DNA of 23,278 nt, from IMG/VR virus record IMGVR_UViG_2562617087_000022; one strand, 5' to 3'. Position numbers and translations under genes: made by a program. Positions 2,189 to 18,001 of the stretch are shown here, in pieces. The stretch's first letter is position 1. Each line of letters starts with the position of its first letter. The notes under the pieces are model-generated. The model had not been told where the DNA came from. It saw only the letters and a list, made by a program, of their open reading frames with translations, and ran no database searches. The stretch is from a virus (taxonomy: Duplodnaviria > Heunggongvirae > Uroviricota > Caudoviricetes).

Positions 2189-3076
2189 TCAGGCTGCCAG
2201 ATCATCGTTTCTGATGGAAGCATAATAAGCTTTTTCTGCTTCTGCCGGAGGGATATGACCCAGCCTTCCCAGCAATCGTCGATTGTTATACCAGTCCACC
2301 CACGTGAGTGTGGCCAGTTCCACTTCTGCACGGTTTTTCCAGCTCTTACGGTGTATTACCTCCGCTTTGTAAAGACCATTGATGCTCTCCGCCATCGCGT
2401 TGTCATACGAGTCACCTGTACTCCCTGTTGATGCCAGCAGTTTTGCTTCTTTTAGTCGCTCCGTATAGGCCAGTGATATATACTGAGAACCTTTATCACT
2501 GTGATGGACTGTGCCGGACGGCCGACGGGCCCACAACGCCTGCTCCAGTGCATCCAGCACGAATGTCGTTTCCATAGACGATGAGACTCGCCACCCCACG
2601 ATACATCCGGCAAACACATCAATGATGAACGCCACATAGACGAAGCCCTGCCATGTGCTGACGTAAGTAAAATCAGCCACCCACAGCTGGTCAGGACGTT
2701 CTGCCACGAACTGACGGTTTACGCGGTCGCCTGCGGAAACGGCTTTCCGGCTGACGGTAGTACGGACCTTTTTACCCCGGAGAACACCGGCAAGTCCCAT
2801 AACCGCCATGAGGCGCGCCACTGTACATCTGGCCACCCTGATACCTTCGCGTAACAACTGGCGCCAGACTTTACGCACACCGTACACCTGATGATTTTCA
2901 TCGTATACGCGCTGTATCTCTCTCTTCAGCCAGTCATCGCGCTGAGCACGGGCACTGCGTTTATCAGGATGATGTCGCTGTTGCTGACAGTGGTAATACG
3001 TTGACGGGGCAATATGCAGTTCACTGCATACCGGTCCGACCCCGTACTGCTCACGCAGCTTATCCAGCAGCGGCAT
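2189..3076 (-). CDS. IS629 transposase OrfB (DDE integrase domain)
   Basis: 295-aa [18 protein letters not shown]...; recognised as IS629/IS1203 OrfB; a second, truncated copy is at 12118..12795. Confidence 0.9.
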   Translation of the reverse strand: MPLLDKLREQYGVGPVCSELHIAPSTYYHCQQQRHHPDKRSARAQRDDWLKREIQRVYDENHQVYGVRKVWRQLLREGIRVARCTVARLMAVMGLAGVLRGKKVRTTVSRKAVSAGDRVNRQFVAERPDQLWVADFTYVSTWQGFVYVAFIIDVFAGCIVGWRVSSSMETTFVLDALEQALWARRPSGTVHHSDKGSQYISLAYTERLKEAKLLASTGSTGDSYDNAMAESINGLYKAEVIHRKSWKNRAEVELATLTWVDWYNNRRLLGRLGHIPPAEAEKAYYASIRNDDLAA

Positions 3077-3402
3077 TATTTTTTCCAGAGGCGGTCGAAC
3101 TCCGCCTTCGCAAAATAAGCGGAAGCCTGGCGAAGGATATCGTTACTGCGGCGCAGTTCACGATTTTCACGTTCCAGCTCTTTCAGACGCTGACGTTCAG
3201 CGGTGGTGAGTCCACCATCACCACTCCCGGTATCCCGCTCATGCTGACGAACCCACACACGCAGAGTCTCTGGTGTACAGCCAATCTTTGGGGCAATGGA
3301 ACAAATTGCCGCCCATTGTGAGTCATATTCGCCCTGACTTTCCAGAACCATACGAACTGCTCGTTGACGGACCTCGGGGGAAAAACGTGTATTTTTAGTC
3401 AT
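3076..3402 (-). CDS. IS629 OrfA (HTH transposase subunit)
   Basis: 108-aa [29 protein letters not shown]...; the copy at 11792..12118 differs by one residue. Confidence 0.9.
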
Positions 3403-3456
3403 CCTGTTTACCTCTTTCTCAGGGAGTTTAGTCTCCAGGATTCCCGGGGCGGTTCA

Positions 3457-4428
3457 CTGTCTGAGCGCGAGGAGATACGAGCTGGTTTGTCAGCCAAAAT
3501 GAGCATTCGTGCGATAGCTACTGCGCTGAATCGCAGTCCTTCGACGATCTCACGTGAAGTTCAGCGTAATCGGGGCAGACGCTATTACAAAGCTGTTGAT
3601 GCTAATAACCGAGCCAACAGAATGGCGAAAAGGCCAAAACCGTGCTTACTGGATCAAAATTTACCATTGCGAAAGCTTGTTCTGGAAAAGCTGGAGATGA
3701 AATGGTCTCCAGAGCAAATATCAGGATGGTTAAGGCGAACAAAACCACGTCAAAAAACGCTGCGAATATCACCTGAGACAATTTATAAAACGCTGTACTT
3801 TCGTAGCCGTGAAGCGCTACACCACCTGAATATACAGCATCTGCGACGGTCGCATAGCCTTCGCCATGGCAGGCGTCATACCCGCAAAGGCGAAAGAGGT
3901 ACGATTAACATAGTGAACGGAACACCAATTCACGAACGTTCCCGAAATATCGATAACAGACGCTCTCTAGGGCATTGGGAGGGCGATTTAGTCTCAGGTA
4001 CAAAAAACTCTCATATAGCCACACTTGTAGACCGAAAATCACGTTATACGATCATCCTCAGACTCAGGGGCAAAGATTCTGTCTCAGTAAATCAGGCTCT
4101 TACCGACAAATTCCTGAGTTTACCGTCAGAACTCAGAAAATCACTGACATGGGACAGAGGAATGGAACTGGCCAGACATCTAGAATTTACTGTCAGCACC
4201 GGCGTTAAAGTTTACTTCTGCGATCCTCAGAGTCCTTGGCAGCGGGGAACAAATGAGAACACAAATGGGCTAATTCGGCAGTACTTTCCTAAAAAGACAT
4301 GTCTTGCCCAATATACTCAACATGAACTAGATCTGGTTGCTGCTCAGCTAAACAACAGACCGAGAAAGACACTGAAGTTCAAAACACCGAAAGAGATAAT
4401 TGAAAGGGGTGTTGCATTGACAGATTGA
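3457..4428 (+). pseudogene. insI: IS30 transposase, C-terminal portion (disrupted by IS629)
   Basis: From LSEREEIRAGLSAKMSIRAIATALNRSPSTISREV... to ...KEIIERGVALTD stop; colinear with InsI after the IS629 insertion point. Confidence 0.88.
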
Positions 4429-6977: not shown

Positions 6978-7141
6978 TCACGGTTGTGTGCTTTGAGCAC
7001 ATAGAAGACTTTGTGGCAGATATTGCCGTTATTTTTAACTGGTCGCCCGCCGAAATCTTCATGATGACGCCCGGCGAAGTGGTTAGCTGGCGTGAGCGGG
7101 CGGCACTTCGCAGCGGGAATGCAGACAATGAAGACTCTTGA
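6612..7141 (+). CDS. Tail assembly chaperone E+E' (predicted -1 frameshift extension product)
   Basis: The -1 frame ORF 6905..7141 overlaps the 3' end of E and ends inside the start of T, as in P2 E/E' (analogous to lambda G/GT). Confidence 0.55.
6923..6929 (+). promoter_or_regulatory. Putative -1 programmed ribosomal frameshift slippery heptamer T-TTT-TTG
   Basis: Heptamer in the E reading frame (codons AAT TTT TTG), upstream of the E stop and inside the overlapping -1 ORF. Confidence 0.5.
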
Positions 7142-9931
7142 TATCCGGGTCGCTTTCAGCGCCGTTGACAGGCTGACCCGACCTGCCGAAAACGCACGCC
7201 GCCTGATGGGGCAGTTTGGTGACTCCATCCAGCGAACGCAGGGGGCGATCAAAAATCTCGAGCGTCAGGCGCGATCATTTGAGCGCGCCCGCGACGCTGT
7301 CAGTAAAGCGGATGCTGGCATCGTGAAAGCACGACGCCAGCTTAACGCCCTTAATCAGTTACAACGCACGGGTACAGTGCTCAGCGAAAAACAACAAAAG
7401 CTGATGCAGCAGTTAAGCACCCGGCTTGAACGCCTGAATGAATCGCGCACACGGGAAATTCAGAAAATGAGGGAACTTGGCGGAGAGCTGAAACGCCACG
7501 GCATTTCCCTGACAGGCAGCGATAACACCATTCAGCAGGCCATCAGACGCACCGAACAATACAACAACCAGCTTGAACGCGAACGGCAGGCGCTTGCGCG
7601 TGTAACGCAGGCGCGTGAGCGGTATTCGCACGCGCAGGAAACCGCGGGAAAACTGAAAACAGGTGGTGCGCTGGCAATTGGTGCGGCAGCGGCGGGCGGC
7701 TATGCTGCCGGGCGTTTTTTGCAGCCTGCGATCGGGTTCGGCAAAGAGATGTCCCGCGTTCAGGCACTGACGCGAATCGACAAAAACAGCCCGCAGTTTA
7801 AGGCGCTGCGTGAGCAGGCGTTAAAACTTGCTGAAACACAGTTTACTGCGAGTGATGCCGCCAGTGGGCAGAGCTTTCTGGCAATGGCTGGTTTTACTCC
7901 GCAGGCCATTCAGGCCGCATTGCCCGGTGTTCTTAATATGGCGCTGGCAGGTGGCGTCGAACTCGGCGAGACGGCTGATATAGGCTCCAATATCCTCACA
8001 CAGTTCAACCTGACAGCCGATCAAATGGACCGGGTGGGCGATACGCTGACAGCAGCATTTACCCGGACCAATACTGATTTACGCGCGCTGGGCGAAACCA
8101 TGAAGTATACCGGTCCGGTTGCCGCAAAACTTGGTATCAGTCTTGAAGAAGCGGCGGCCATGGCCGGGATGCTTGCCAATAATGGTCTTCGCGGAAGCGA
8201 TGCTGGCACGGCCATGCGCGCAAGTCTGTCCCGCCTTGCATCACCGCCAAAAGCTGCGGCTGATGCACTGAAAGAGCTGGGGGTGTCAGTTGCTGACGCC
8301 AGAGGCAAAATGCGCCCGATGGAGGATGTGCTGCTTGATCTCTATAAGGCGACACAAAAATACGGACAGGTGGACCAGGTCTCCTTCTTCAAGGACATCG
8401 CCGGAGAAGAGGCGTTCGTTGGTTTGCAGACGCTTGTTGCGGCGGCTGGTTCAGGAGAGCTGCAAAAACTGACCAGAGAATTGCAGGGGGCAAGGGGAGA
8501 GGCCGATCGCGTCGCAAAAGTAATGGCTGATAATCTTGATGGGGACCTGAAAAATCTCGACAGCGCATGGGAAGGTCTTCGTATTCGCATCAGTGATCTG
8601 GTTGACGGTCCGCTGCGTTCTGTCACGCAGTGGCTCACGCGGGTGCTTGAAAAAATCACCTCGCTGGCGCAGGCCCATCCGGTACTGACGCGCCAGCTAC
8701 TGATAGCAGGCGGTGCGTTGCTGGCAATGACTGCAACGATTGGCTCGTTGTCGCTGGTTATTGGGGTGCTTTACGGGAAGCTGGCCACCCTGCGTCTTGG
8801 TTTTGACATTCTTACCCGGTCAATGAATGTCGTCAGGGTGTTACCTGCGCTATGGGGAATGGTGACGGGTTCCGTTTCTTTACTGGGAGGCGTTATCGGG
8901 GCGTTGTTCAGTCCGGTTGGTCTTATCGTGGCTGCGCTTGCCGGAGCTGCCGTTCTTATCTGGAAATACTGGGATCCTATCAGGGCTTTCTTTGCCGGGG
9001 TGTTCAGCGGGATTATGGAAAGGCTGACCCCGTTGCGCGACACCTTTGAACGGTTTGGCCCTGTTTTTGACGTAATCGGAAGCGGTTCAGCCAGGTGTTT
9101 AACTGGTTTAAATCGCTGCTGTCACCGATGGAGTCCAGCAAGGAAACGCTGGATAAATGTACCAGTGCTGGCGAGGTATTCGGTAACGTTCTTGGTGGTG
9201 CGTTACAGCTTGTTCTGACGCCTGCAAAAATGTTGCTGGATACGCTGGCGTGGATACTTGAAAAACTCGGTGTGCTTCCGGATGAAGCGGAAAGGGCGCG
9301 CAAGAAAATCGAAGACGCACAACGTGCGGCCATTCTTCAGGACAAGGTTGCTCTGTTTCAGGGAGACATTGCGAAAATCAATCCGCCGAAGTCTGCGGGA
9401 AATAGCAATGGCACCGGAGATGATAAACCCAAAGACAACAAACCTCTCACAGACAGCAATACCGGCACGCTACGCAGACTCAGCAAAATTGCTGATAACA
9501 CAGGTAAGCTGGTTGATGAGACAAAAAAACGCATTGGCCCCGGCGATATTGTCTTTAAGAACCTGCCCCGCGCACTTGCTGTTCGTGGGGAGTGGCAGGA
9601 GCGGAAGATTGCGCAGGTCAGTAAGCCTGCCCCCGCAATTAATATCACACCCGTGGTCCCGGCTCCGCTGCCTCCGGCGCTGGTCCCTGTTGTTGCGGCC
9701 AGCTCCCGCCCGGTGGTGGAGGCCATACGATCGCCAGTGGCATCAGTTCCTGCAACTTCCCGTAACCGGGAGCCTGTTGCCTCCGGATTTGGCGGTGAAA
9801 TTCATGTTCATCTGCATAACGTTGTTACGCAGAATCCCCGCGAACTGGCGAAACTGGTCGGCGAAATGGTCAGGGCAGAAATGGAACGGCGCGCCCGTGC
9901 CAGGCGTGGCAGTTTTTACGATAAAGATTGA
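7119..9931 (+). pseudogene. Tail tape measure protein (P2 gpT-like), apparently frameshifted near 9071-9095
   Basis: Coiled-coil and Gly/Ala-rich tape-measure-like sequence in frame 0 up to about 9080, then protein-like sequence continues in another frame (ORF 9095..9931); a 1-nt change in the short T run near 9086 would restore one roughly 937-aa ORF. Confidence 0.72.
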
Positions 9932-10537: not shown

Positions 10538-10588
10538 CTCTTAACCTTATAACATGTGTGGTCTGAAATAATAATTAAGGAGATTATC

Positions 10589-11161
10589 GTGCTATCTTAC
10601 TTAATGGCAATTCACTTTGTTTTATTTGGAAACTCTACTAATTTAAAAAACTTCTGGAAACATGAAGTAATTCGGCGGAAACGTATGGATATCTGGAGGC
10701 TTTTAAGAGAGAAAAAGCAGCGTAACCGGAATTTCCTTTTCTGGTGGCGGTTGGCTAACGAAATGTATATTAATGGTAATAAATTACATAAGAAAGCAGC
10801 CAAAAAGTTAAACAGTAAAATAATTAACAAGTTTGGTTGTGAAATAGGATTGGGCGCAAATATTGGAAAAGGGTTGACAATTCCCCATCATGCTGGAATT
10901 GTTGTTCATTTTGCTGTTGATGCGGGTGAAAATCTGGTATTACGACAGAATACTACCATTGGACAGATAGATGGTGATATGCCTAGTTCAAGAGTAAAAA
11001 TTGGTAGTAACGTTGATATCGGAGCTAATTGTTGCATCATTGGATTATCACGTAAAATTGGGGATAATGTAAAAATAGGTGCAATGTCTTTTATAAATAA
11101 AGATATACCATCAAACTGCACATATATAACTAAAAAGAGTGGTGTTGTATTGTATAAATAG
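10589..11161 (+). CDS. Hexapeptide-repeat O-acetyltransferase (CysE/WcaB-like, left-handed beta-helix)
   Basis: GTG start at 10589 behind a strong AAGGAG RBS (alternative ATG at 10604); ...GCEIGLGANIGKGLTIPHHAGIVVHFAVDAGENLVL...IGSNVDIGANCCIIG... hexapeptide repeats; AT-rich; own promoter and terminator. Confidence 0.75.
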   Translation: MLSYLMAIHFVLFGNSTNLKNFWKHEVIRRKRMDIWRLLREKKQRNRNFLFWWRLANEMYINGNKLHKKAAKKLNSKIINKFGCEIGLGANIGKGLTIPHHAGIVVHFAVDAGENLVLRQNTTIGQIDGDMPSSRVKIGSNVDIGANCCIIGLSRKIGDNVKIGAMSFINKDIPSNCTYITKKSGVVLYK

Positions 11162-11170
11162 AGTACATAA

Positions 11171-11209
11171 AGCCATCGATATTTCTGTCGATGGCTTTTT
11201 CTTTTTATT
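11171..11209. terminator. Bidirectional intrinsic terminator between convergent acetyltransferase and tfa genes
   Basis: Perfect 9-bp stem AGCCATCGA / TCGATGGCT with 8-nt loop, followed by TTTTCTTTTTATT on the + strand. Confidence 0.65.
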
Positions 11210-11737
11210 GTGGGGCGACTGGCCACTCAACATCCGCTGCTACTGTTGTATCAACACGATTCAACAATACCCGATATGTCTTCCATGCAGCCAGTAACGA
11301 TGCCTCTTCCTCCGTCGCAATATCCAAATCTACGGCATCCTGAAGTGGCGCAATATGCTCACTGGCTACCTGCATCAGGCTGTTTTTTGTTTCTTCTGCC
11401 TCCCGTACCCGAAACAGTTTTTCTGCTTCTGCATCTTTCGCCCAGGATGTGCCGTTCCACTTCTGACACTCTCCATCCGGCGACAACCAGGTAACATTTT
11501 CCGGTAACGGACCGAGTTCAGAAATAAATAACGCGTCGCCGGAAGCCACGTCATAAACCGTTTTACCCCGATGATCTTCAACGAGATGCCACGATGCCTC
11601 ATTACTGTTGAAAACAGCCACGAAGCCAGCCGGAATATCTGGCGGTGCAATATCGGTACTGTTTGCTGGCAGACCTGTATGAGGCGGAATGTATGCGTCA
11701 CCTTCACCAATAAATTCATTAGTTCCGGCCAGCAGAT
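11205..11737 (-). pseudogene. Tail fibre assembly protein (lambda Tfa / P2 G family), 5'-truncated by IS629
   Basis: Reading frame continues upstream of the listed ORF to the IS629 end: [51 protein letters not shown]...; about the first 16 codons are missing. Confidence 0.85.
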
Positions 11738-11791: not shown

Positions 11792-12118
11792 ATGACTAAA
11801 AATACACGTTTTTCCCCCGAGGTCCGTCAACGGGCAGTCCGTATGGTTCTGGAAAGTCAGGGCGAATATGACTCACAATGGGCGGCAATTTGTTCCATTG
11901 CCCCAAAGATTGGCTGTACACCAGAGACTCTGCGTGTGTGGGTTCGTCAGCATGAGCGGGATACCGGGGGCGGTGATGGTGGACTCACCACCGCTGAACG
12001 TCAGCGTCTGAAAGAGCTGGAACGTGAAAATCGTGAACTGCGCCGCAGTAACGATATCCTTCGCCAGGCTTCCGCTTATTTTGCGAAGGCGGAGTTCGAC
12101 CGCCTCTGGAAAAAATAA
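11792..12118 (+). CDS. IS629 OrfA (second copy)
   Basis: 108-aa ORF, one substitution relative to the copy at 3076..3402. Confidence 0.85.
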
Positions 12119-12795
12119 TGCCGCTGCTGGATAAGCTGCGTGAGCAGTACGGGGTCGGACCGGTATGCAGTGAACTGCATATTGCCCCGTCAACGTATTA
12201 CCACTGTCAGCAACAGCGACATCATCCGGATAAACGCAGTGCCCGTGCGCAGCGCGATGACTGGCTGAAGAGAGAGATACAGCGCGTATACGATGAAAAT
12301 CATCAGGTGTACGGTGTGCGTAAAGTCTGGCGCCAGTTGTTACGCGAAGGTATCAGGGTGGCCAGATGTACAGTGGCGCGCCTCATGGCGGTTATGGGAC
12401 TTGCCGGTGTTCTCCGGGGTAAAAAGGTCCGTACTACCGTCAGCCGGAAAGCCGTTTCCGCAGGCGACCGCGTAAACCGTCAGTTCGTGGCAGAACGTCC
12501 TGACCAGCTGTGGGTGGCTGATTTTACTTACGTCAGCACATGGCAGGGCTTCGTCTATGTGGCGTTCATCATTGATGTGTTTTCCGGATGTATCGTGGGG
12601 TGGCGAGTCTCATCGTCTATGGAAACGACATTCGTGCTGGATGCACTGGAGCAGGCGTTGTGGGCCCGTCGGCCGTCCGGCACAGTCCATCACAGTGATA
12701 AAGGTTCTCAGTATGTATCACTGGCCTATACGGAGCGACTAAAAGAAGCAAAACTGCTGGCATCAACAGGGAGTACAGGTGACTCGTATGACAAT
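12118..12795 (+). pseudogene. IS629 OrfB, C-terminally truncated
   Basis: Matches the first OrfB copy through ...STGSTGDSYDN, then non-homologous codons and a stop; the DDE domain is incomplete. Confidence 0.85.
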
Positions 12796-12826: not shown

Positions 12827-13141
12827 TTATTCTGGGAATAAGGTCTGAATATTCTTTTTTATTTTATAAAAATTGCATTCAACTCCGCTAGGCTGATTAG
12901 CCTGGTATGTTTCCTTGATGCTAACGGTATTGAAGGGGAGGTTGTCCTCTGGCCATTCGGCCATCCAGTAGGCAAATGCTGGGTTGCGCTTTATGAGTGC
13001 TAGCCCAGCCAGAAAGGCCGCGCGTTGCGCGCGGCTGCGTTCGGAGGCTGGCAGGCTATCGAGGTAATTGCACGCCTCCTGTTCACTCTTGACGGCGGCG
13101 GGCTTCAGATAGAAACTTATCCGTCTGGTTGGTGTCGTCAT
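12827..13141 (-). CDS. parR: ParR/StbB-like ribbon-helix-helix centromere-binding protein
   Basis: 104-aa ORF 4 nt downstream of parM; N-terminal ...DSLPASERSRAQRAAFLAGLAL... resembles R1 ParR; the C-terminal third is AT-rich and divergent. Confidence 0.65.
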   Translation of the reverse strand: MTTPTRRISFYLKPAAVKSEQEACNYLDSLPASERSRAQRAAFLAGLALIKRNPAFAYWMAEWPEDNLPFNTVSIKETYQANQPSGVECNFYKIKKNIQTLFPE

Positions 13142-13145
13142 TGGT

Positions 13146-14105
13146 TTACTCCTTGTTCATTGCGTACAACCCATTAACCAGAGCAAACTGTGGCACCCCG
13201 TCCGCGATGAAAGTCGCATTAACTCCGCAGGCTTCGCGGATAGCGGTTGCCACAATCTCCGCCCCGCCACCGACAACCATCACCCGCCCGTAACCCGAAA
13301 AAACCGCCAGCGCGCGGATCACGCGTTGTTTCAGTGTTTCTTCCTTTTCACGAATAACCGCCATCAGGCTGGCGTAATGCGCGTCATTGTGGATGTGCTG
13401 GCGCAGCCAGGCTTCATCATGGCGATGTTCGATAATGGTATTGGCGATGTGGTGACTGGTGCGCATACCGTTAGTGGCCATCACCGACAGTACGGCATCG
13501 GCCATCAGAGAAACGCCTACGTGTGGATCGCAAAACACCTGGCTGATACCTGCCAGTTGCCCCTGAACCTTTGCCACATCCAGCGTGGTTCCGCCCAAAT
13601 CCACAATCAGCAGGGATTCAAACGGACTCATGTCAGCCAGTGCCTTAAAGCCAGCAGGAATGGATTCAGGCATAACCCGTACGTTACGGATAGTGAATGC
13701 TTCGCCGTTCTGGTACTCCACCGGGCGCATGACGTTCGCTTTTTTGCGGTTGATGTTGGCCATGTCCGGCTGTGCGTTTGTATCGAAATACTCGCTCAGT
13801 GGCAGGGTGACAACCACATCCACTTCCTGTGGTGTGATGCCTGATTTGACCAGCGCGTGATGAATGGCAATTACATTCACATCGCTGTACTGGTATTGCG
13901 TGTCGGTCGTCTGGACAAAGCGATCGCTGACCGGATCAAAACCATAGCGCACGCCATCAAGCATGTAGTTCGCGGGCTGCGTGCCACCGAATGGCGCAGA
14001 CCATTCCGACTTGAAGCTGTTCGGGCTGATGGCGTTGCGGCGTTCGCCGTTCTCAGTCCATGCCAGCTTGATGTTGGTGGAGCCGTCGTCGATACAAATT
14101 TTCAT
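13146..14105 (-). CDS. parM: ParM/StbA actin-like plasmid segregation ATPase
   Basis: 319-aa ORF; clear colinear similarity to R1 ParM (MK.CIDDGSTNIKL..., ...YSDVNVIAIHHAL..., ...VMPESIPAG..., ...DLGGTTLD..., ...GGGAEI...). Confidence 0.9.
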   Translation of the reverse strand: MKICIDDGSTNIKLAWTENGERRNAISPNSFKSEWSAPFGGTQPANYMLDGVRYGFDPVSDRFVQTTDTQYQYSDVNVIAIHHALVKSGITPQEVDVVVTLPLSEYFDTNAQPDMANINRKKANVMRPVEYQNGEAFTIRNVRVMPESIPAGFKALADMSPFESLLIVDLGGTTLDVAKVQGQLAGISQVFCDPHVGVSLMADAVLSVMATNGMRTSHHIANTIIEHRHDEAWLRQHIHNDAHYASLMAVIREKEETLKQRVIRALAVFSGYGRVMVVGGGAEIVATAIREACGVNATFIADGVPQFALVNGLYAMNKE

Positions 14106-14133
14106 GTCGCTTTTCCTTATGTTGATTAATTAA

Positions 14134-14252
14134 TCGGTTACAGGATTTTTAAATCCCGCTTTTGCCTGTTTTGTGCGCGCTTCATATATCGCGGCGCGTT
14201 TTTTGCTCATTTACGGGATTTGTGAGTCCCGTTTCTGTCTGTTTTTTGTTTC
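14134..14252. repeat. Two imperfect direct repeats of about 36 bp (iteron-like), straddling the 3' end of gene A upstream of parM
   Basis: ACAGGATTTTTAAATCCCGCTTTTGCCTGTTTTGTG (14134-) and ACGGGATTTGTGAGTCCCGTTTCTGTCTGTTTTTTG (14213-); each has an internal short inverted repeat. Confidence 0.35.
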
Positions 14253-17004
14253 CACTGGTCAGGCCACCCCGCAGCAGGTCTGCTTTGCGGCTGGCGCGTT
14301 CAGTGGTTTCACTGATTCTCTGTGCGTGCTCTGCGTCGCGGATGGCGCGCAGCATGTCAGAAAGCACGGTAACGGGTGTTTTCATGGTGTTCTGGTCCTG
14401 CTGAAGTGTGGATGCCAGGCGTGCGGCGGCTTCAGGGTCTGATGCCCCCAGCTGTGCCAGATAGCTGGCGACCGGGTTATGGCGGATCTCCGTGCTGCTT
14501 ACGCCATGATTACGGCTCAGGCGCTGCCAGAGCTGCGTGATTCGGCTGTCCGGGCGGGTATCCGGTTTGCGTACAATTTCAAATCCCTGCGGTGCAATGA
14601 TGCTGCCGTCAACGTACAGACTGCCGCCCCGTAACAGGTGCTGCATCTGTTGTTCACCGATATGCAGGCCGAGAGATTCAGCAGACTCCCGCCATTCTTT
14701 AGCGAGTAATTCGTGGTTATCAGGCAAAGGCCGCTGCTGTTTGCGGCTCTGTGTCCAGCTCTGCATTTCATCACTGCTGTTTTTTGCCTGTTTGTCACGA
14801 AGCGAACGCATCAGCGCCCGGCGTTCGTGCCGTTTCAGTGAGCGCATCCATTCGTTCACGTCAACGCCGTCAGGAAGCTGCGGCCACGGTGCTGGCCGTT
14901 CTTCCGGCTGTTCTGTCCCGTTGTTGTCCGTTTCCTGTACACGGGGACAGTTATTGCCACGAGTCCAAGGGGCGGCAGGGCCGCCCTGAAGGTCAAAACC
15001 ATTTTCGCGGGCGCTGTCTTCTACTCCCGGTTTACGTCTTACCAGCTTCCAGTTATCCGGGTGCGTGCACACACGGGAGGATTCCCCGATGAGTGGTGAC
15101 CAGATCCCGTAAATCTGTACGCTCTGTTCGCCGTAATCGTTCAGCTCATCTGCGAGGTCGTAGGCGGTGCGAATCAGGTAGTCCTTGCGTGGAACAAGTA
15201 CGCCTCCCTGTTTCTCAATGTAGGTGGTAAAACATCCGGCATCAGCGGCAGCAAGAACCGCATCCATTGCGTCATCCTTCAGCCGTTGCGGGCCTTCCGG
15301 GTTGCGTGCCATCTGGCTGGCAAGGCGACGCAGTTCACGCCACACCTGACGGGAGGGGATGCCAAAGAACTGGAACTGGCGGACCCGGTGAAGGCGCGCC
15401 CAGCCAATGGCGCGTTCCACGCTCTCGGTCATTGATTTTCCGGTTTCGTGGTCAACGCGTGGTTTGCCTGTTTTCGGGTCGATGCCATCCACGGCGCGGC
15501 TGTCCAGGTTTTTTCCGATGTAGGTGGCGATGTAGCTGGTTGGCGTGCCTTTTGAGCCGTCGACATACTCCGCCTTAAAGCGCGGAGTAATATCATCGCC
15601 CAGCTCGTGACGATCTTCCTGAATGGCAATATCGCGGGTGTGGGACACAATGGTGTCGATTTCTTCCGGATGAGCAAAGACCATCATATGCCAGTGCACG
15701 GTGCCGTCATGGTGAGGCTCCACCGTGCGGATGCCATACCAGCGCAGGCCGTCGCGGTTCAGTTTCTTGCGGACCGCCGCAAAAAACGTGTTAACCAGGT
15801 AATCGCTGGAGTCGCGCATGGTGGCCCCGTTCCATTTGGGATTCGGATGACCGTTCTCTGTTGTAGCGTGGTATTTTGACGGGCAGGTGACAGTCAGAAA
15901 CACCGCTTTGTCGCCACGGGCTTCGGCCAGAAGTTCCAGCCCCTTCATGGTGGCCATCATTTCTGCCTTACGGTGAACCGGGTTACTTACTCCCGCGTAA
16001 TACACTGTCTCGAGATCAATCGTGAACCCGTCTTCGTTTTCCAGCATGAAACTTTTCAGGAAATCGCGTGTTTTCTCGCGCTGTGCGCGAAACTCGCTTA
16101 ACGCGTCCTGGCTCAGATAGGGCGATGTTTTTCTGGAAACCAGACAGGCGGCGCGGAGTTGTTCTTCTCTCCACTCGCAACGTAACAGCCACAGTTTGCG
16201 TTTCCACCATTCCGCACAGGTCAGGCGAAGGATTGCGCCCGGCAGCAGCTCCGTGTCCGGTTCGTTCCTCCGGTCTTTGTCTGTTGTCAGTGCGTCATAA
16301 TGTGGAGGCATGGCGTGCAGGTGTAACGCCATGCGGGCCAGCATCTGATACGCCTTCAGCGTTACATCCATGGTCAGTTCGCCATCGGTCGCGCCAAAGC
16401 CATCGCAGAGTTTTTCGAAGGTGCTGCTGAACATCGCCGCCGTCATGGTGGCCAGCGTCTGTATCTGGTGTTTGTTGAGCTGCGGCAGGTAAAGCAAATC
16501 GTCCAGGCGTTCGCGTCCGGCAAGGGAGCGATAACCCTGTGTCAGCCAGCGGTGATCGGTGCGCTCCAGACGTTCGAATATTTTGCGCAGGTTTCCGCGC
16601 GCGTAGCGTTCAGCCTGCCAGCTCTTTTTGCCTTTCTGACGATCGGCTTCCTGTTTTTTGCGCAGGAAGGAGAGGTGGCGAATAAGCGGATCGCGCAGAT
16701 AGGACGGCAGCAGGCGCAGCGAGGCCATGGCTTCATCCACCGCACCGCGTGCCTGTTTTCTGGCGTCTCCTGCCAGTGTGATGGTTTTGTCCTGTTTTTC
16801 CTGTGCGTCCAGGCTTTTATTAATCAGGTTGCCCAGCGGCGTTGCGGAGAACGCCGCATCAGCCATTTCCTGGCGGCGCTCGTTCTCTACCCGGTAGGCA
16901 TCCAGCCAGGAGGAAAGCGCGGATTCAGGAGCGGGGATCCCCGTTCCTTCACGCCCCACTGCGTGGCGCGGTTGTTGCCAGTCCCTGATGTACTCTGCCG
17001 TCAT
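14182..17004 (-). CDS. Rolling-circle replication initiation endonuclease (P2 gpA-like)
   Basis: 940-aa ORF; HUH-type motif ...EPHHDGTVHWHMMVF... and tyrosine motif ...TSYIATYIGKNL... typical of P2/186 A proteins. Confidence 0.9.
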   Translation of the reverse strand: MTAEYIRDWQQPRHAVGREGTGIPAPESALSSWLDAYRVENERRQEMADAAFSATPLGNLINKSLDAQEKQDKTITLAGDARKQARGAVDEAMASLRLLPSYLRDPLIRHLSFLRKKQEADRQKGKKSWQAERYARGNLRKIFERLERTDHRWLTQGYRSLAGRERLDDLLYLPQLNKHQIQTLATMTAAMFSSTFEKLCDGFGATDGELTMDVTLKAYQMLARMALHLHAMPPHYDALTTDKDRRNEPDTELLPGAILRLTCAEWWKRKLWLLRCEWREEQLRAACLVSRKTSPYLSQDALSEFRAQREKTRDFLKSFMLENEDGFTIDLETVYYAGVSNPVHRKAEMMATMKGLELLAEARGDKAVFLTVTCPSKYHATTENGHPNPKWNGATMRDSSDYLVNTFFAAVRKKLNRDGLRWYGIRTVEPHHDGTVHWHMMVFAHPEEIDTIVSHTRDIAIQEDRHELGDDITPRFKAEYVDGSKGTPTSYIATYIGKNLDSRAVDGIDPKTGKPRVDHETGKSMTESVERAIGWARLHRVRQFQFFGIPSRQVWRELRRLASQMARNPEGPQRLKDDAMDAVLAAADAGCFTTYIEKQGGVLVPRKDYLIRTAYDLADELNDYGEQSVQIYGIWSPLIGESSRVCTHPDNWKLVRRKPGVEDSARENGFDLQGGPAAPWTRGNNCPRVQETDNNGTEQPEERPAPWPQLPDGVDVNEWMRSLKRHERRALMRSLRDKQAKNSSDEMQSWTQSRKQQRPLPDNHELLAKEWRESAESLGLHIGEQQMQHLLRGGSLYVDGSIIAPQGFEIVRKPDTRPDSRITQLWQRLSRNHGVSSTEIRHNPVASYLAQLGASDPEAAARLASTLQQDQNTMKTPVTVLSDMLRAIRDAEHAQRISETTERASRKADLLRGGLTSGNKKQTETGLTNPVNEQKTRRDI

Positions 17005-17010
17005 AGTGAT

Positions 17011-17376
17011 TTACTTCGTCATGCCATTCAGGGTGTCGCGGCAGGCTGTAGCCAGCCGCTGAATTTCCAGCACGGTGTCTTCTGTGTCGGCATGGCGATG
17101 TGTGATGCGGATGCTGTCGGCAATCACATCGACGATTGCAGAGGATGGGCGCTGGTAAATGCCAATAACGGACGGGGTGCCACCTTCAATGCGGTAAAGC
17201 CTGTAATTTCCCTCGTGGCTGTCAATCATGTAGCGACCATCAATAACAATCTTTCCGTCAGCGAGCTGCGGTACAGGCAGGGATTTCAGGTACATGTCAT
17301 AACGATCACGCACGCGAGCGGCAAGATCACGTTCTGTGTTGAGCAGGTATTCAAGAAAGTCGTTGGCGAGAATCAT
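17011..17376 (-). CDS. Hypothetical phage early protein
   Basis: 121-aa ORF with RBS AAGAGGA; ends 7 nt before gene A; protein-like composition. Confidence 0.55.
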   Translation of the reverse strand: MILANDFLEYLLNTERDLAARVRDRYDMYLKSLPVPQLADGKIVIDGRYMIDSHEGNYRLYRIEGGTPSVIGIYQRPSSAIVDVIADSIRITHRHADTEDTVLEIQRLATACRDTLNGMTK

Positions 17377-17448
17377 TGCGGCAATCCTCTTGTTACAGAT
17401 GTGCGAAGGCCTCCCGCCGCAAGGTGCAGGAAAGGCCCGGAACAGGAA

Positions 17449-17679
17449 TTAATGGAGTTTGTTTTGCTGCTGGATGAGCTGTTGAAACTCGTGCAGATCA
17501 TCCGCCAGATAGCTGAAAACAGAGGCGGAATAAATGTTTGATAGTGCGTGGCTGCGCTCATGCAGCATATTGATGTGCATGATTTGCGCGACGCGTGATG
17601 CGCGGGAAAGTCTGCGGTTGATTTCAGTCTGGATGTGACGACGCTCCGCGATAGCGCGGTGCTGTTTGCGGTCTGCCAT
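17449..17679 (-). CDS. Hypothetical small basic protein
   Basis: 76-aa ORF with GAGG RBS; first gene after the structured non-coding island. Confidence 0.5.
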   Translation of the reverse strand: MADRKQHRAIAERRHIQTEINRRLSRASRVAQIMHINMLHERSHALSNIYSASVFSYLADDLHEFQQLIQQQNKLH

Positions 17680-17848
17680 GGTGTGGCCTCTTTGCTCGGT
17701 GATAGAAATAACTCACCATCCAGAGTTGAGAATCTCGGGGTGGCGAGACGTACAGGGTTCTCAACACCGGAGAGCAAAGAATCCGGCCCGACCGAAGTCG
17801 GCCCCGTACGCCCCGCCATAATTCTGACGCGAAAAAGACGTGGCAATA

Positions 17849-17870
17849 CAGTACGCACAAAAAAACCGCT
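17849..17870 (-). terminator. Candidate intrinsic terminator (minus-strand transcript)
   Basis: Short GC stem AACCGC / GCGGTT with 4-nt loop, then 7 U on the minus strand; weak stem. Confidence 0.4.
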
Positions 17871-17941
17871 AGCGCGGTTATGCGCTTTGCTCTGTATCGG
17901 GTTGAGAATCCCGGCACCCGTTTTATGAGGTGCAGCGGAAA

Positions 17942-17970
17942 TGTAACCTGACCGATTGCGGCATGGCAAG
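17942..17970 (+). terminator. Candidate intrinsic terminator (plus-strand transcript)
   Basis: Stem CCGATTGC / GCAAGCGG (one mismatch) with 6-nt loop, followed by T7. Confidence 0.45.
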
Positions 17971-18001
17971 CGGTTTTTTTGTGTGTGCATGTTCTGGTTT
18001 C

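Follow-up and report, generated by a model that had tools for sequence, protein, structure and literature searches.

The window, a stretch of 23,278 nucleotides, carries CP-933T/Sp13, a defective P2-like prophage found in E. coli O157:H7. In the RefSeq annotation, the prophage lies integrated with a tRNA cluster on one side and yecA on the other (the attB site of this phage adjoins the tRNA cluster), encodes an integrase, and is heavily deleted, with the head genes absent and the tape-measure gene frameshifted. Membership in the P88-like (Xuanwuvirus) P2-family phages was defined by a collinear early region (a 940-aa gpA, then parMR) together with an integrase and tail genes of the P2 type. 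In gene order the annotated region agrees with P88, having a gpA of 940 aa followed by parMR. Across loci, gpA has a median nucleotide identity of 96.8%, and over its C-terminal 200 aa 14/14 P88-like phage records show 95-99% identity. The window is a deleted member of this phage lineage.

Three co-directional genes were found on the minus strand in the order gpA, parM, and parR. The context gene gpA (14182..17004) encodes a replication endonuclease of 940 aa, assigned using Pfam (Phage_GPA, 2.4e-131), PHROG (phrog_91, 'nicking at origin of replication'), and RefSeq ('replication endonuclease'), and ends in a TGA stop codon at 14184-14182. After a gap of 76 nt (14106-14181), for which the 77 bp given in an earlier note on this DNA was essentially right, comes the ATG of parM (13146..14105, minus strand), encoding an actin-like segregation ATPase of 319 aa with matches to Pfam StbA_N (1.8e-82) and the ParM C-terminal domain (3.5e-69). 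The parR gene (12827..13141, minus strand) starts 4 nt beyond the parM stop and encodes a StbB-family adaptor of 104 aa that matches Pfam Plasmid_stab_B (7.7e-29, residues 6-75) and PHROG 2515 'partition protein' (1e-54). The earlier note had read both frames, at these positions and beside a co-directional gene A, as a ParM/ParR cassette, and the Pfam searches confirmed a type II partition pair, placed immediately behind the gpA gene of a P2-family prophage.

ParM was aligned over its full length with R1 ParM (PDB 1mwk; E = 7e-93, ~53% identity), and the nucleotide-binding motifs DDGSTNIK, PESIPAG, DLGGTTLD, and GGGAE are all conserved in this alignment. The protein is 99% identical to that of P88 and 95-99% identical among P88-like phages. 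The parM dN/dS values of 0.01-0.17 indicate that the cassette is under strong purifying selection. ParR gave a weak match to pB171 ParR 2jd3 (E = 0.012) and exists as two domain alleles with a hypervariable linker, whereas ParM is conserved at 95-99%. The allele in the window is the O157-type ('B'), which is 99% identical in phages 705R2, 569R5, and an ST131 P88-like phage and 53% identical to the ParR of P88. The N-terminal MTTPTRRISFYLKP is invariant across alleles, as is the C-terminal motif [KR]NI[QR]xxFP[EK] in 41 distinct full-length ParR sequences, the linkers of which are hypervariable; this motif aligns with the C-terminus of an IncL/M plasmid ParR. In type II systems it is with its C-terminal tail that ParR binds ParM.

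Upstream of parM are two 38-nt direct repeats that share 79% identity and follow each other at an interval of 73 bp. Both contain a palindrome of the form CGGGAyT-N-AATCCyG and are candidate parC sites. Candidate repeat 1 (14211..14248, minus strand; direct-repeat family D1, inverted repeat I1) has the palindromic core ACGGGACTCACAAATCCCGT on the coding strand and sits within the 3' end of gpA, in the last ~22 codons. Candidate repeat 2 (14138..14175, minus strand; palindromic core GCGGGATTTAAAAATCCTGT) is in the spacer between gpA and parM, at a distance of 33 nt from the parM start codon. Two repeats had previously been described between the genes; both copies are real, but only the second is intergenic. 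Comparison of 85 loci showed that the palindrome arms of both candidate repeats are conserved and the central spacers variable, which is the pattern expected of a protein-binding site. The parC region is 98% identical to that of P88. Scans of the coding strand between gpA and parM found no consensus sigma-70 promoter and no terminator, and hexamer candidates selected by eye, such as TTTAAA-N17-ATTAAT, were weak and unconserved in P88.

A truncated IS629 of the IS3 family (11792..12795, plus strand; RefSeq 'IS3 family transposase, frameshifted, incomplete'), with an ALIL pseudoknot at 12073-12189, adjoins parR outside the cassette, as had been noticed from the sequence. The cassette might accordingly be a plasmid fragment captured by IS629, as was also suggested, or a decaying remnant without function in a prophage that is heavily deleted, frameshifted in the tape-measure gene, and missing its head genes. 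Either origin is highly improbable. The stretch from gpA through parC, parM, and parR to 32 nt past parR is collinear with the intact phages P88 and vB_EcoM-705R2, the match to 705R2 stopping at window position 12795, 32 nt past the parR stop, where IS629 starts (12794/12795). The closest true plasmid ParM is ~53% identical to that of the cassette, and this distance and the collinearity together refute capture by IS629. Decay is opposed by the intact open reading frames, by the low dN/dS of parM, and by the presence of the cassette beside gpA in 24% of complete E. coli genomes. The truncated IS629 marks the deletion that took out the hotspot cargo, cos, and head genes.

The cassette was found in 1304/5426 complete E. 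coli genomes (~24%), some of which hold 2-3 copies. These genomes contain 1444 places with the cassette, 1442 chromosomal and 2 on plasmids (>99.8% integrated). gpA is upstream of the cassette in 84/86 loci, and the gpA-parM-parR order was found in P88 and 13 other phage records. ParM matches in phages comprised 14 P2-family records and two others, which are P1-like phage D6; the gpA C-terminal 200 aa were found in the same 14 P2-family records and in no other phage record. Beyond parR, the DNA fell into 22 clusters among 78 loci. The earlier note had placed the cassette in a variable accessory slot; the locus comparison shows that, in the P88-like lineage, gpA and the cassette are conserved together and that the DNA becomes variable downstream of parR. 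The cassette is conserved backbone at the edge of a variable hotspot, not swappable cargo.

The hotspot in question, the gpA-gpQ locus, is a documented defence hotspot (PMC9122126), and a role in exclusion, incompatibility, or defence was considered, in which the ParR/parC of the prophage would disturb incoming related phages or plasmids with the same centromere or the cassette would be an unrecognised anti-phage system. Such a role would fit the location, the two ParR domain alleles with their hypervariable linker beside a conserved ParM, and the multiple copies in some genomes, but it is very unlikely. A defence system of this hotspot would be expected to resemble known defence proteins and to occur as swappable cargo. 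No PADLOC match was obtained at E <= 0.1 for ParM, ParR, or gpA, and the cassette is conserved rather than swapped, with the variability starting after parR. Co-variation of ParR allele with parC sequence was not found, both ParR types pairing with both spacer variants. The DNA-reading N-terminus of ParR and the parC arms do not differ between alleles, and parC variation does not follow ParR type, so that nothing points to a diversification of specificity. The partition system is classed by Rousset et al. under 'other functions' (PMC9122126).

The presence of such a cassette in P2-like phages is in print. About one-quarter of E. coli P2-like phages were reported to have a putative partitioning system that may permit plasmid maintenance (Rousset 2022, PMC9122126), and P88 was listed among candidate phage-plasmids because of its partition cassette (Pfeifer 2021, PMC7969092). 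Both parM and parR are already named in RefSeq and PHROGs, so the statement that the cassette is no described part of P2-family biology does not stand. The cassette is real but not new: it belongs to the ordinary P88-like backbone, and the finding is ordinary because the cassette is conserved, already annotated, already published, and present in about one-quarter of E. coli genomes. With the plasmid-maintenance idea published as well, the observation itself adds nothing new. In the literature searched, no experiments on the cassette were found, nor any on the use of an actin-type segregation machine to a phage that is integrated in >99.8% of sequenced cases.

The same order of gpA (940 aa), parC repeats, parM, and parR is found in P88, where the pair is gp17/gp18, and in other Xuanwuvirus (Peduoviridae). 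The window differs from P88 in the alternative ParR allele and in the truncated IS629 that replaces the downstream hotspot cargo, cos, and head genes. With the ParMRC (StbA/StbB) systems of R1/NR1 and pB171, the cassette shares the ParM fold family and all nucleotide-binding motifs, a ParR of the same Pfam family (N-terminal DNA-binding part, variable linker, and conserved C-terminal tail), and the operon order of a centromere (here a candidate), parM, and parR. The host replicon here is an integrating P2-family phage, whereas R1/NR1 and pB171 are low-copy theta plasmids. The candidate centromere also differs, having just two 38-nt palindrome-bearing repeats upstream of parM, one of them in the gpA coding sequence, with conserved arms and no clear promoter between them, whereas R1 parC consists of ten 11-bp iterons flanking a promoter, and a type II centromere as a rule includes the promoter of the operon. 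Phage-borne segregation modules are likewise present in the phage-plasmids P1/P7 (ParAB), N15 (SopAB), and D6 (StbA-type, with a ParM 48% identical to that of the cassette), which are as a rule kept extrachromosomally; unlike these, the cassette is chromosomal in 1442/1444 cases and its phage encodes an integrase.

As a partition locus, the cassette is of the canonical type II (ParMRC) kind and belongs to the P88-like backbone; the best explanation, and a reasonably probable one, is that it segregates transient phage circles. ParR dimers would bind the two palindromic candidate parC sites, the ParR C-terminal tails would catch the ends of ParM-ATP filaments, and the growing filament would drive the two members of a pair of circular phage genomes apart. 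The gpA-replicated circle, either excised or not yet integrated, would serve as substrate, and fewer elements would be lost in episomal phases such as spontaneous excision, induction, and infection when attB is unavailable. A permanent plasmid lifestyle would not be supported by this system. Expression would probably occur by read-through from the early (gpA) operon, for which the absence of a coding-strand terminator between gpA and parM speaks, possibly assisted by a weak ParR-controlled promoter in parC. Against the segregation reading are the two candidate parC sites compared with ten iterons in R1, the lack of a promoter in the consensus scan, the chromosomal position of 1442/1444 copies, and the lytic-cycle character of P2-type gpA replication.

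An episomal substrate exists. Sp13 spontaneously excises, circularises, and replicates, and under mitomycin C its circles increase ~30-fold and its early genes are induced (PMC2669165). The second instance is the single 34.5-kb circular 'plasmid' record found in PLSDB, which is one whole P88-like genome. Its genotype is also chromosomally integrated in a sister strain (99.9% identical over a 1.3-kb segment), the strain of the record itself being absent from the complete-genome collection, and the circular sequence may have been assembled from induced phage DNA. Segregation of excised, replicating phage circles is the likely role of the cassette, and, of the roles in the earlier note, phage cargo for plasmid-like maintenance of an excised element is the most plausible.

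The circles could also matter in the lytic cycle. P2-family phages package from circles, and ParMR might spread or position the many monomeric circles made by gpA for packaging and have no part in inheritance. With neither a terminator between gpA and parM nor a clear promoter of its own, the cassette probably depends on the early lytic operon for its expression. Its linkage to gpA, including the C-terminal 200 aa specific to the lineage, is strict. Nearly all copies are integrated, so that selection may act in lytic growth. A purely lytic role is nevertheless unlikely, as lytic growth proceeds without ParMR in P2, 186, and most other members of the P2 family, and this ParM is present in just 14 P2-family phage records. 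The defective O157 prophage, moreover, keeps the cassette intact without head genes of its own, though the lineage is clonal.

Beyond the segregation of transient circles, a longer-lived state can be envisaged in which P88-like phages are facultative integrative phage-plasmids, with ParMRC coupled to the lineage-specific gpA and the non-integrated circle segregating as an episome for many generations. The 200-aa C-terminal extension of gpA and its embedded parC site co-occur strictly with parMR. This state is possible but doubtful. Phage-plasmids are recognised by lysogens with an extrachromosomal prophage, a pattern not seen here, with 1442 chromosomal against 2 plasmid places and one circular PLSDB record; since 1442/1444 copies are chromosomal, a stable plasmid state is rare or absent. 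P2-type gpA replication proceeds by a rolling circle, acts in cis, and belongs to the lytic cycle; it is not known to sustain a controlled low-copy plasmid. If true, the facultative state would give P2-type rolling-circle replicons a carrier state not so far described for them, and it could explain why even the head-less Sp13 remnant still circularises, replicates, and is retained.

Proof of either a transient episomal carrier state or a lytic-cycle role would add modestly, but in a real way, to what is known of P2-family phages, because ~24% of complete E. coli genomes carry the cassette and it is under strong purifying selection. Such proof would also bear on the stable persistence of defective prophages in O157:H7. 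A genome-contig scan, which found no more distant phage-linked relatives of the cassette, was extended beyond E. coli and gave three near-identical loci only, in E. albertii, in Salmonella enterica, and in a probably contaminated 'Vagococcus' assembly.

The window is 100% identical to many E. coli O157:H7 chromosomes, where the region is annotated in RefSeq as a defective P2-like prophage (CP-933T in EDL933, Sp13 in Sakai) with the glyW-cysT-leuZ tRNA cluster (tRNAs confirmed) on one side and yecA on the other. On the minus strand, the gene for the 940-aa replication endonuclease gpA (14182-17004) comes first; 76 nt separate it from parM (13146-14105; 319 aa; Pfam StbA_N, 1.8e-82, and ParM C-terminal domain, 3.5e-69), and another 4 nt separate parM from parR (12827-13141; 104 aa; StbB/ParR family, Pfam Plasmid_stab_B, 7.7e-29). 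These genes are named "plasmid segregation protein ParM" and "plasmid partitioning/stability family protein" in RefSeq, and PHROGs has a phage family for each (phrog_691 and phrog_2515, "partition protein"). The alignment to R1 ParM (PDB 1mwk) spans the full length of the window ParM (E = 7e-93), and none of its phosphate-binding or adenosine motifs (DDGSTNIK, PESIPAG, DLGGTTLD, and GGGAE) is disrupted; ParR gave a weak match to the pB171 ParR structure 2jd3. The ORF positions and the Pfam and PDB matches therefore confirm the ParM/ParR pair reported here in the earlier note, and the identity of the cassette as a ParMRC module is secure, with hardly any doubt.

Compared with phage P88, ParM is 99% identical and ParR just 53%. 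The parR gene is a mosaic (12827-13141, minus strand, versus P88 9820-10131): the two versions share codons 1-18 at the start and the last ~8 at the end, and are only ~50% identical in the middle. The flanking parM is 99% identical. The O157-type ParR allele was found again at 99% in phages 705R2 and 569R5 and in an ST131 P88-like phage, and phages that are otherwise nearly identical differ in ParR, with two or more domain alleles and several linker variants in circulation. Among 41 distinct full-length ParR sequences, there were two N-terminal domain types, a hypervariable linker (~residues 65-95), and two invariant parts, N-terminal residues 1-14 (MTTPTRRISFYLKP) and a C-terminal motif, [KR]NI[QR]xxFP[EK]. 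The C-terminal motif aligns with the C-terminus of an IncL/M plasmid ParR (RKNVQHLFPDDD) and, as a lead only, with that of R1 ParR. Such a layout fits what is known of ParR proteins, in which the N-terminus binds DNA, the linker is flexible, and the tail binds ParM; both binding functions are predicted for the window ParR.

Two direct repeats of 38 nt (14138-14175 and 14211-14248; 79% identical, 73 bp apart), each with a palindrome, are the candidate parC. On the coding strand, the upstream repeat (14211-14248) falls inside the 3' end of gpA, within ~22 codons of its stop (14184-14182), and the downstream repeat lies in the gpA-parM spacer, 33 nt 5' of the parM ATG. In the 85 parM loci compared, taken from phages, from IMG/VR, and from the window, the arms of the palindrome (CGGGAT/ATCCCG) are conserved and the central 4-6 nt vary, the pattern that would be expected for a dimer-binding site, and parC is a plausible assignment for the pair. 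The parC of R1 consists of ten 11-bp iterons surrounding the promoter, whereas the window has two palindrome-bearing repeats instead. The parC variants did not track ParR type and therefore gave no sign of diverging centromere specificities. A consensus scan between gpA and parM found neither a sigma-70 promoter nor a coding-strand terminator, so parMR transcription may simply continue from the early operon.

ParM at 95-99% protein identity was found in 14 phage records, namely P88, other Xuanwuvirus (the P88-like lineage), and relatives including vB_EcoM-705R2 and Citrobacter phage phiSM; the next-best phage match was P1-like phage D6 (48%), and true plasmid ParMs reached ~53% at most. In P88 and 705R2, gpA, parM, and parR precede a few small genes, which are followed by portal Q and terminase P. 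The window stays homologous to 705R2, an intact phage, for 32 nt past the parR stop, to 12795, where a 3'-truncated IS629 takes its place (also in the RefSeq annotation). IS629 therefore marks a deletion, in which the hotspot cargo, cos, and head genes were lost, and was not the carrier of the cassette. With the plasmid ParMs this distant and the cassette collinear with 705R2 beyond parR, capture of a plasmid fragment via IS629, one of the origins offered in the earlier note, is refuted. Decay into a functionless remnant is very unlikely. The interpretation in the earlier note holds only in part, plasmid-like maintenance of the excised element being the most plausible role. Upstream, gpA was present in 84 of 86 loci with at least 1 kb of sequence (median nucleotide identity, 96.8%), and the first 600 nt 3' of parR fell into 22 unrelated clusters among 78 loci. 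The parMRC module is thus phage backbone and forms the conserved left boundary of the gpA-gpQ hotspot, which is variable; swappable hotspot cargo was rejected, since variation begins after parR. The gpA C-terminal 200 aa (residues 741-940; 14185-14784, minus strand), which are without a Pfam domain, were found in exactly the 14 phage records carrying the window-type ParM, and the upstream repeat is embedded in this lineage-specific region. The co-occurrence may reflect replication-partition coupling or simply shared lineage.

The 1434-nt cassette was found in 1304 of 5426 complete E. coli genomes (24%), at 1442 chromosomal and 2 plasmid places, with a "replication endonuclease" under the cassette match in every row listed. 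This share agrees with a survey of 18,150 gpA-gpQ loci, in which about a quarter of E. coli P2-like phages had a putative partitioning system (Rousset et al. 2022, PMC9122126). Pairwise dN/dS of parM was 0.01-0.17 among eight alleles. PLSDB held one 34.5-kb circular "plasmid", pZ1323PEC0009-2 (NZ_CP148288.1; 34,461 bp), deposited from a cat E. coli isolate; it comprises an entire P88-like genome, including integrase, cox/C, tail and head genes, parMR, Hok/Gef, and a methyltransferase. Over a 1.3-kb segment, it has 99.9% identity to a copy integrated in the chromosome of another strain of that study series, Z1323HEC0067, and the record may be a genuine episome or may have been assembled from induced phage DNA. 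A stable plasmid state is therefore an exception at best. An enterobacterial parM locus of the P88-like type (97% identical) on a 226-kb contig of a "Vagococcus sp." assembly (NZ_JBQPOM010000071.1) is probably contamination or a mislabeled assembly.

The cassette is a real and common feature that has been annotated and, with the same plasmid-maintenance hypothesis, discussed in print before, P88 having been listed among candidate phage-plasmids owing to its partition and replication genes (Pfeifer et al. 2021, PMC7969092). Sp13 of Sakai, the window's own prophage, excises, circularizes, and replicates spontaneously, and mitomycin C raises this ~30-fold and induces early genes; the partition genes are unmentioned there (Asadulghani et al. 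2009, PMC2669165). We lean slightly toward a role in transient episomal phases. In this reading, dimers of ParR would sit on the two palindromic sites and use their C-terminal tails to capture ParM-ATP filaments, which on growing would move paired phage circles apart; the substrate would be the excised or not-yet-integrated circular genome replicated by gpA. The system would reduce element loss during such phases and would not sustain a permanent plasmid. The main rival, a purely lytic-cycle positioning role, is considered unlikely. An exclusion or defense role finds little support, as PADLOC gave no match and the module is conserved, not swapped. The literature search found no papers testing the function of the cassette, which belongs to a phage that is nearly always integrated.

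Signs of decay elsewhere in the prophage are a frameshifted tape-measure gene (7092-9931, plus strand; ORFs 7092-9218 and 9095-9931) and, at the tRNA-proximal end (2189-4428), a complete IS629 adjoining a truncated IS30 and a truncated late-control D gene. An AT-rich ORF between the tail and tail-fiber-assembly genes (10556-11161, plus strand), annotated as a serine O-acetyltransferase or hexapeptide-repeat transferase, looks like a moron; pZ1323PEC0009-2 has a related "transferase" at the equivalent position. The Rfam candidate sRNA IS009 (191 bits; 11242-11440, minus strand) lies within the tail-fiber-assembly gene (11205-11621). Rfam matches to C4 antisense RNA (78.5 bits; 17736-17823, minus strand) and the Hfq-binding RNA isrK (63 bits; 17859-17933, minus strand) fall in a ~320-nt unannotated gap just 5' of a P4 epsilon-like gene that has been noted for Sp13, the "derepression protein" gene at 17449-17679. 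The arrangement resembles a c4-antirepressor immunity module of the P1/P7 type, here within a P2-family prophage, and may be related to the unusual inducibility by mitomycin C that has been reported for Sp13. The 205-aa ORF at 17373-17990, annotated in phage 705R2, is probably spurious.
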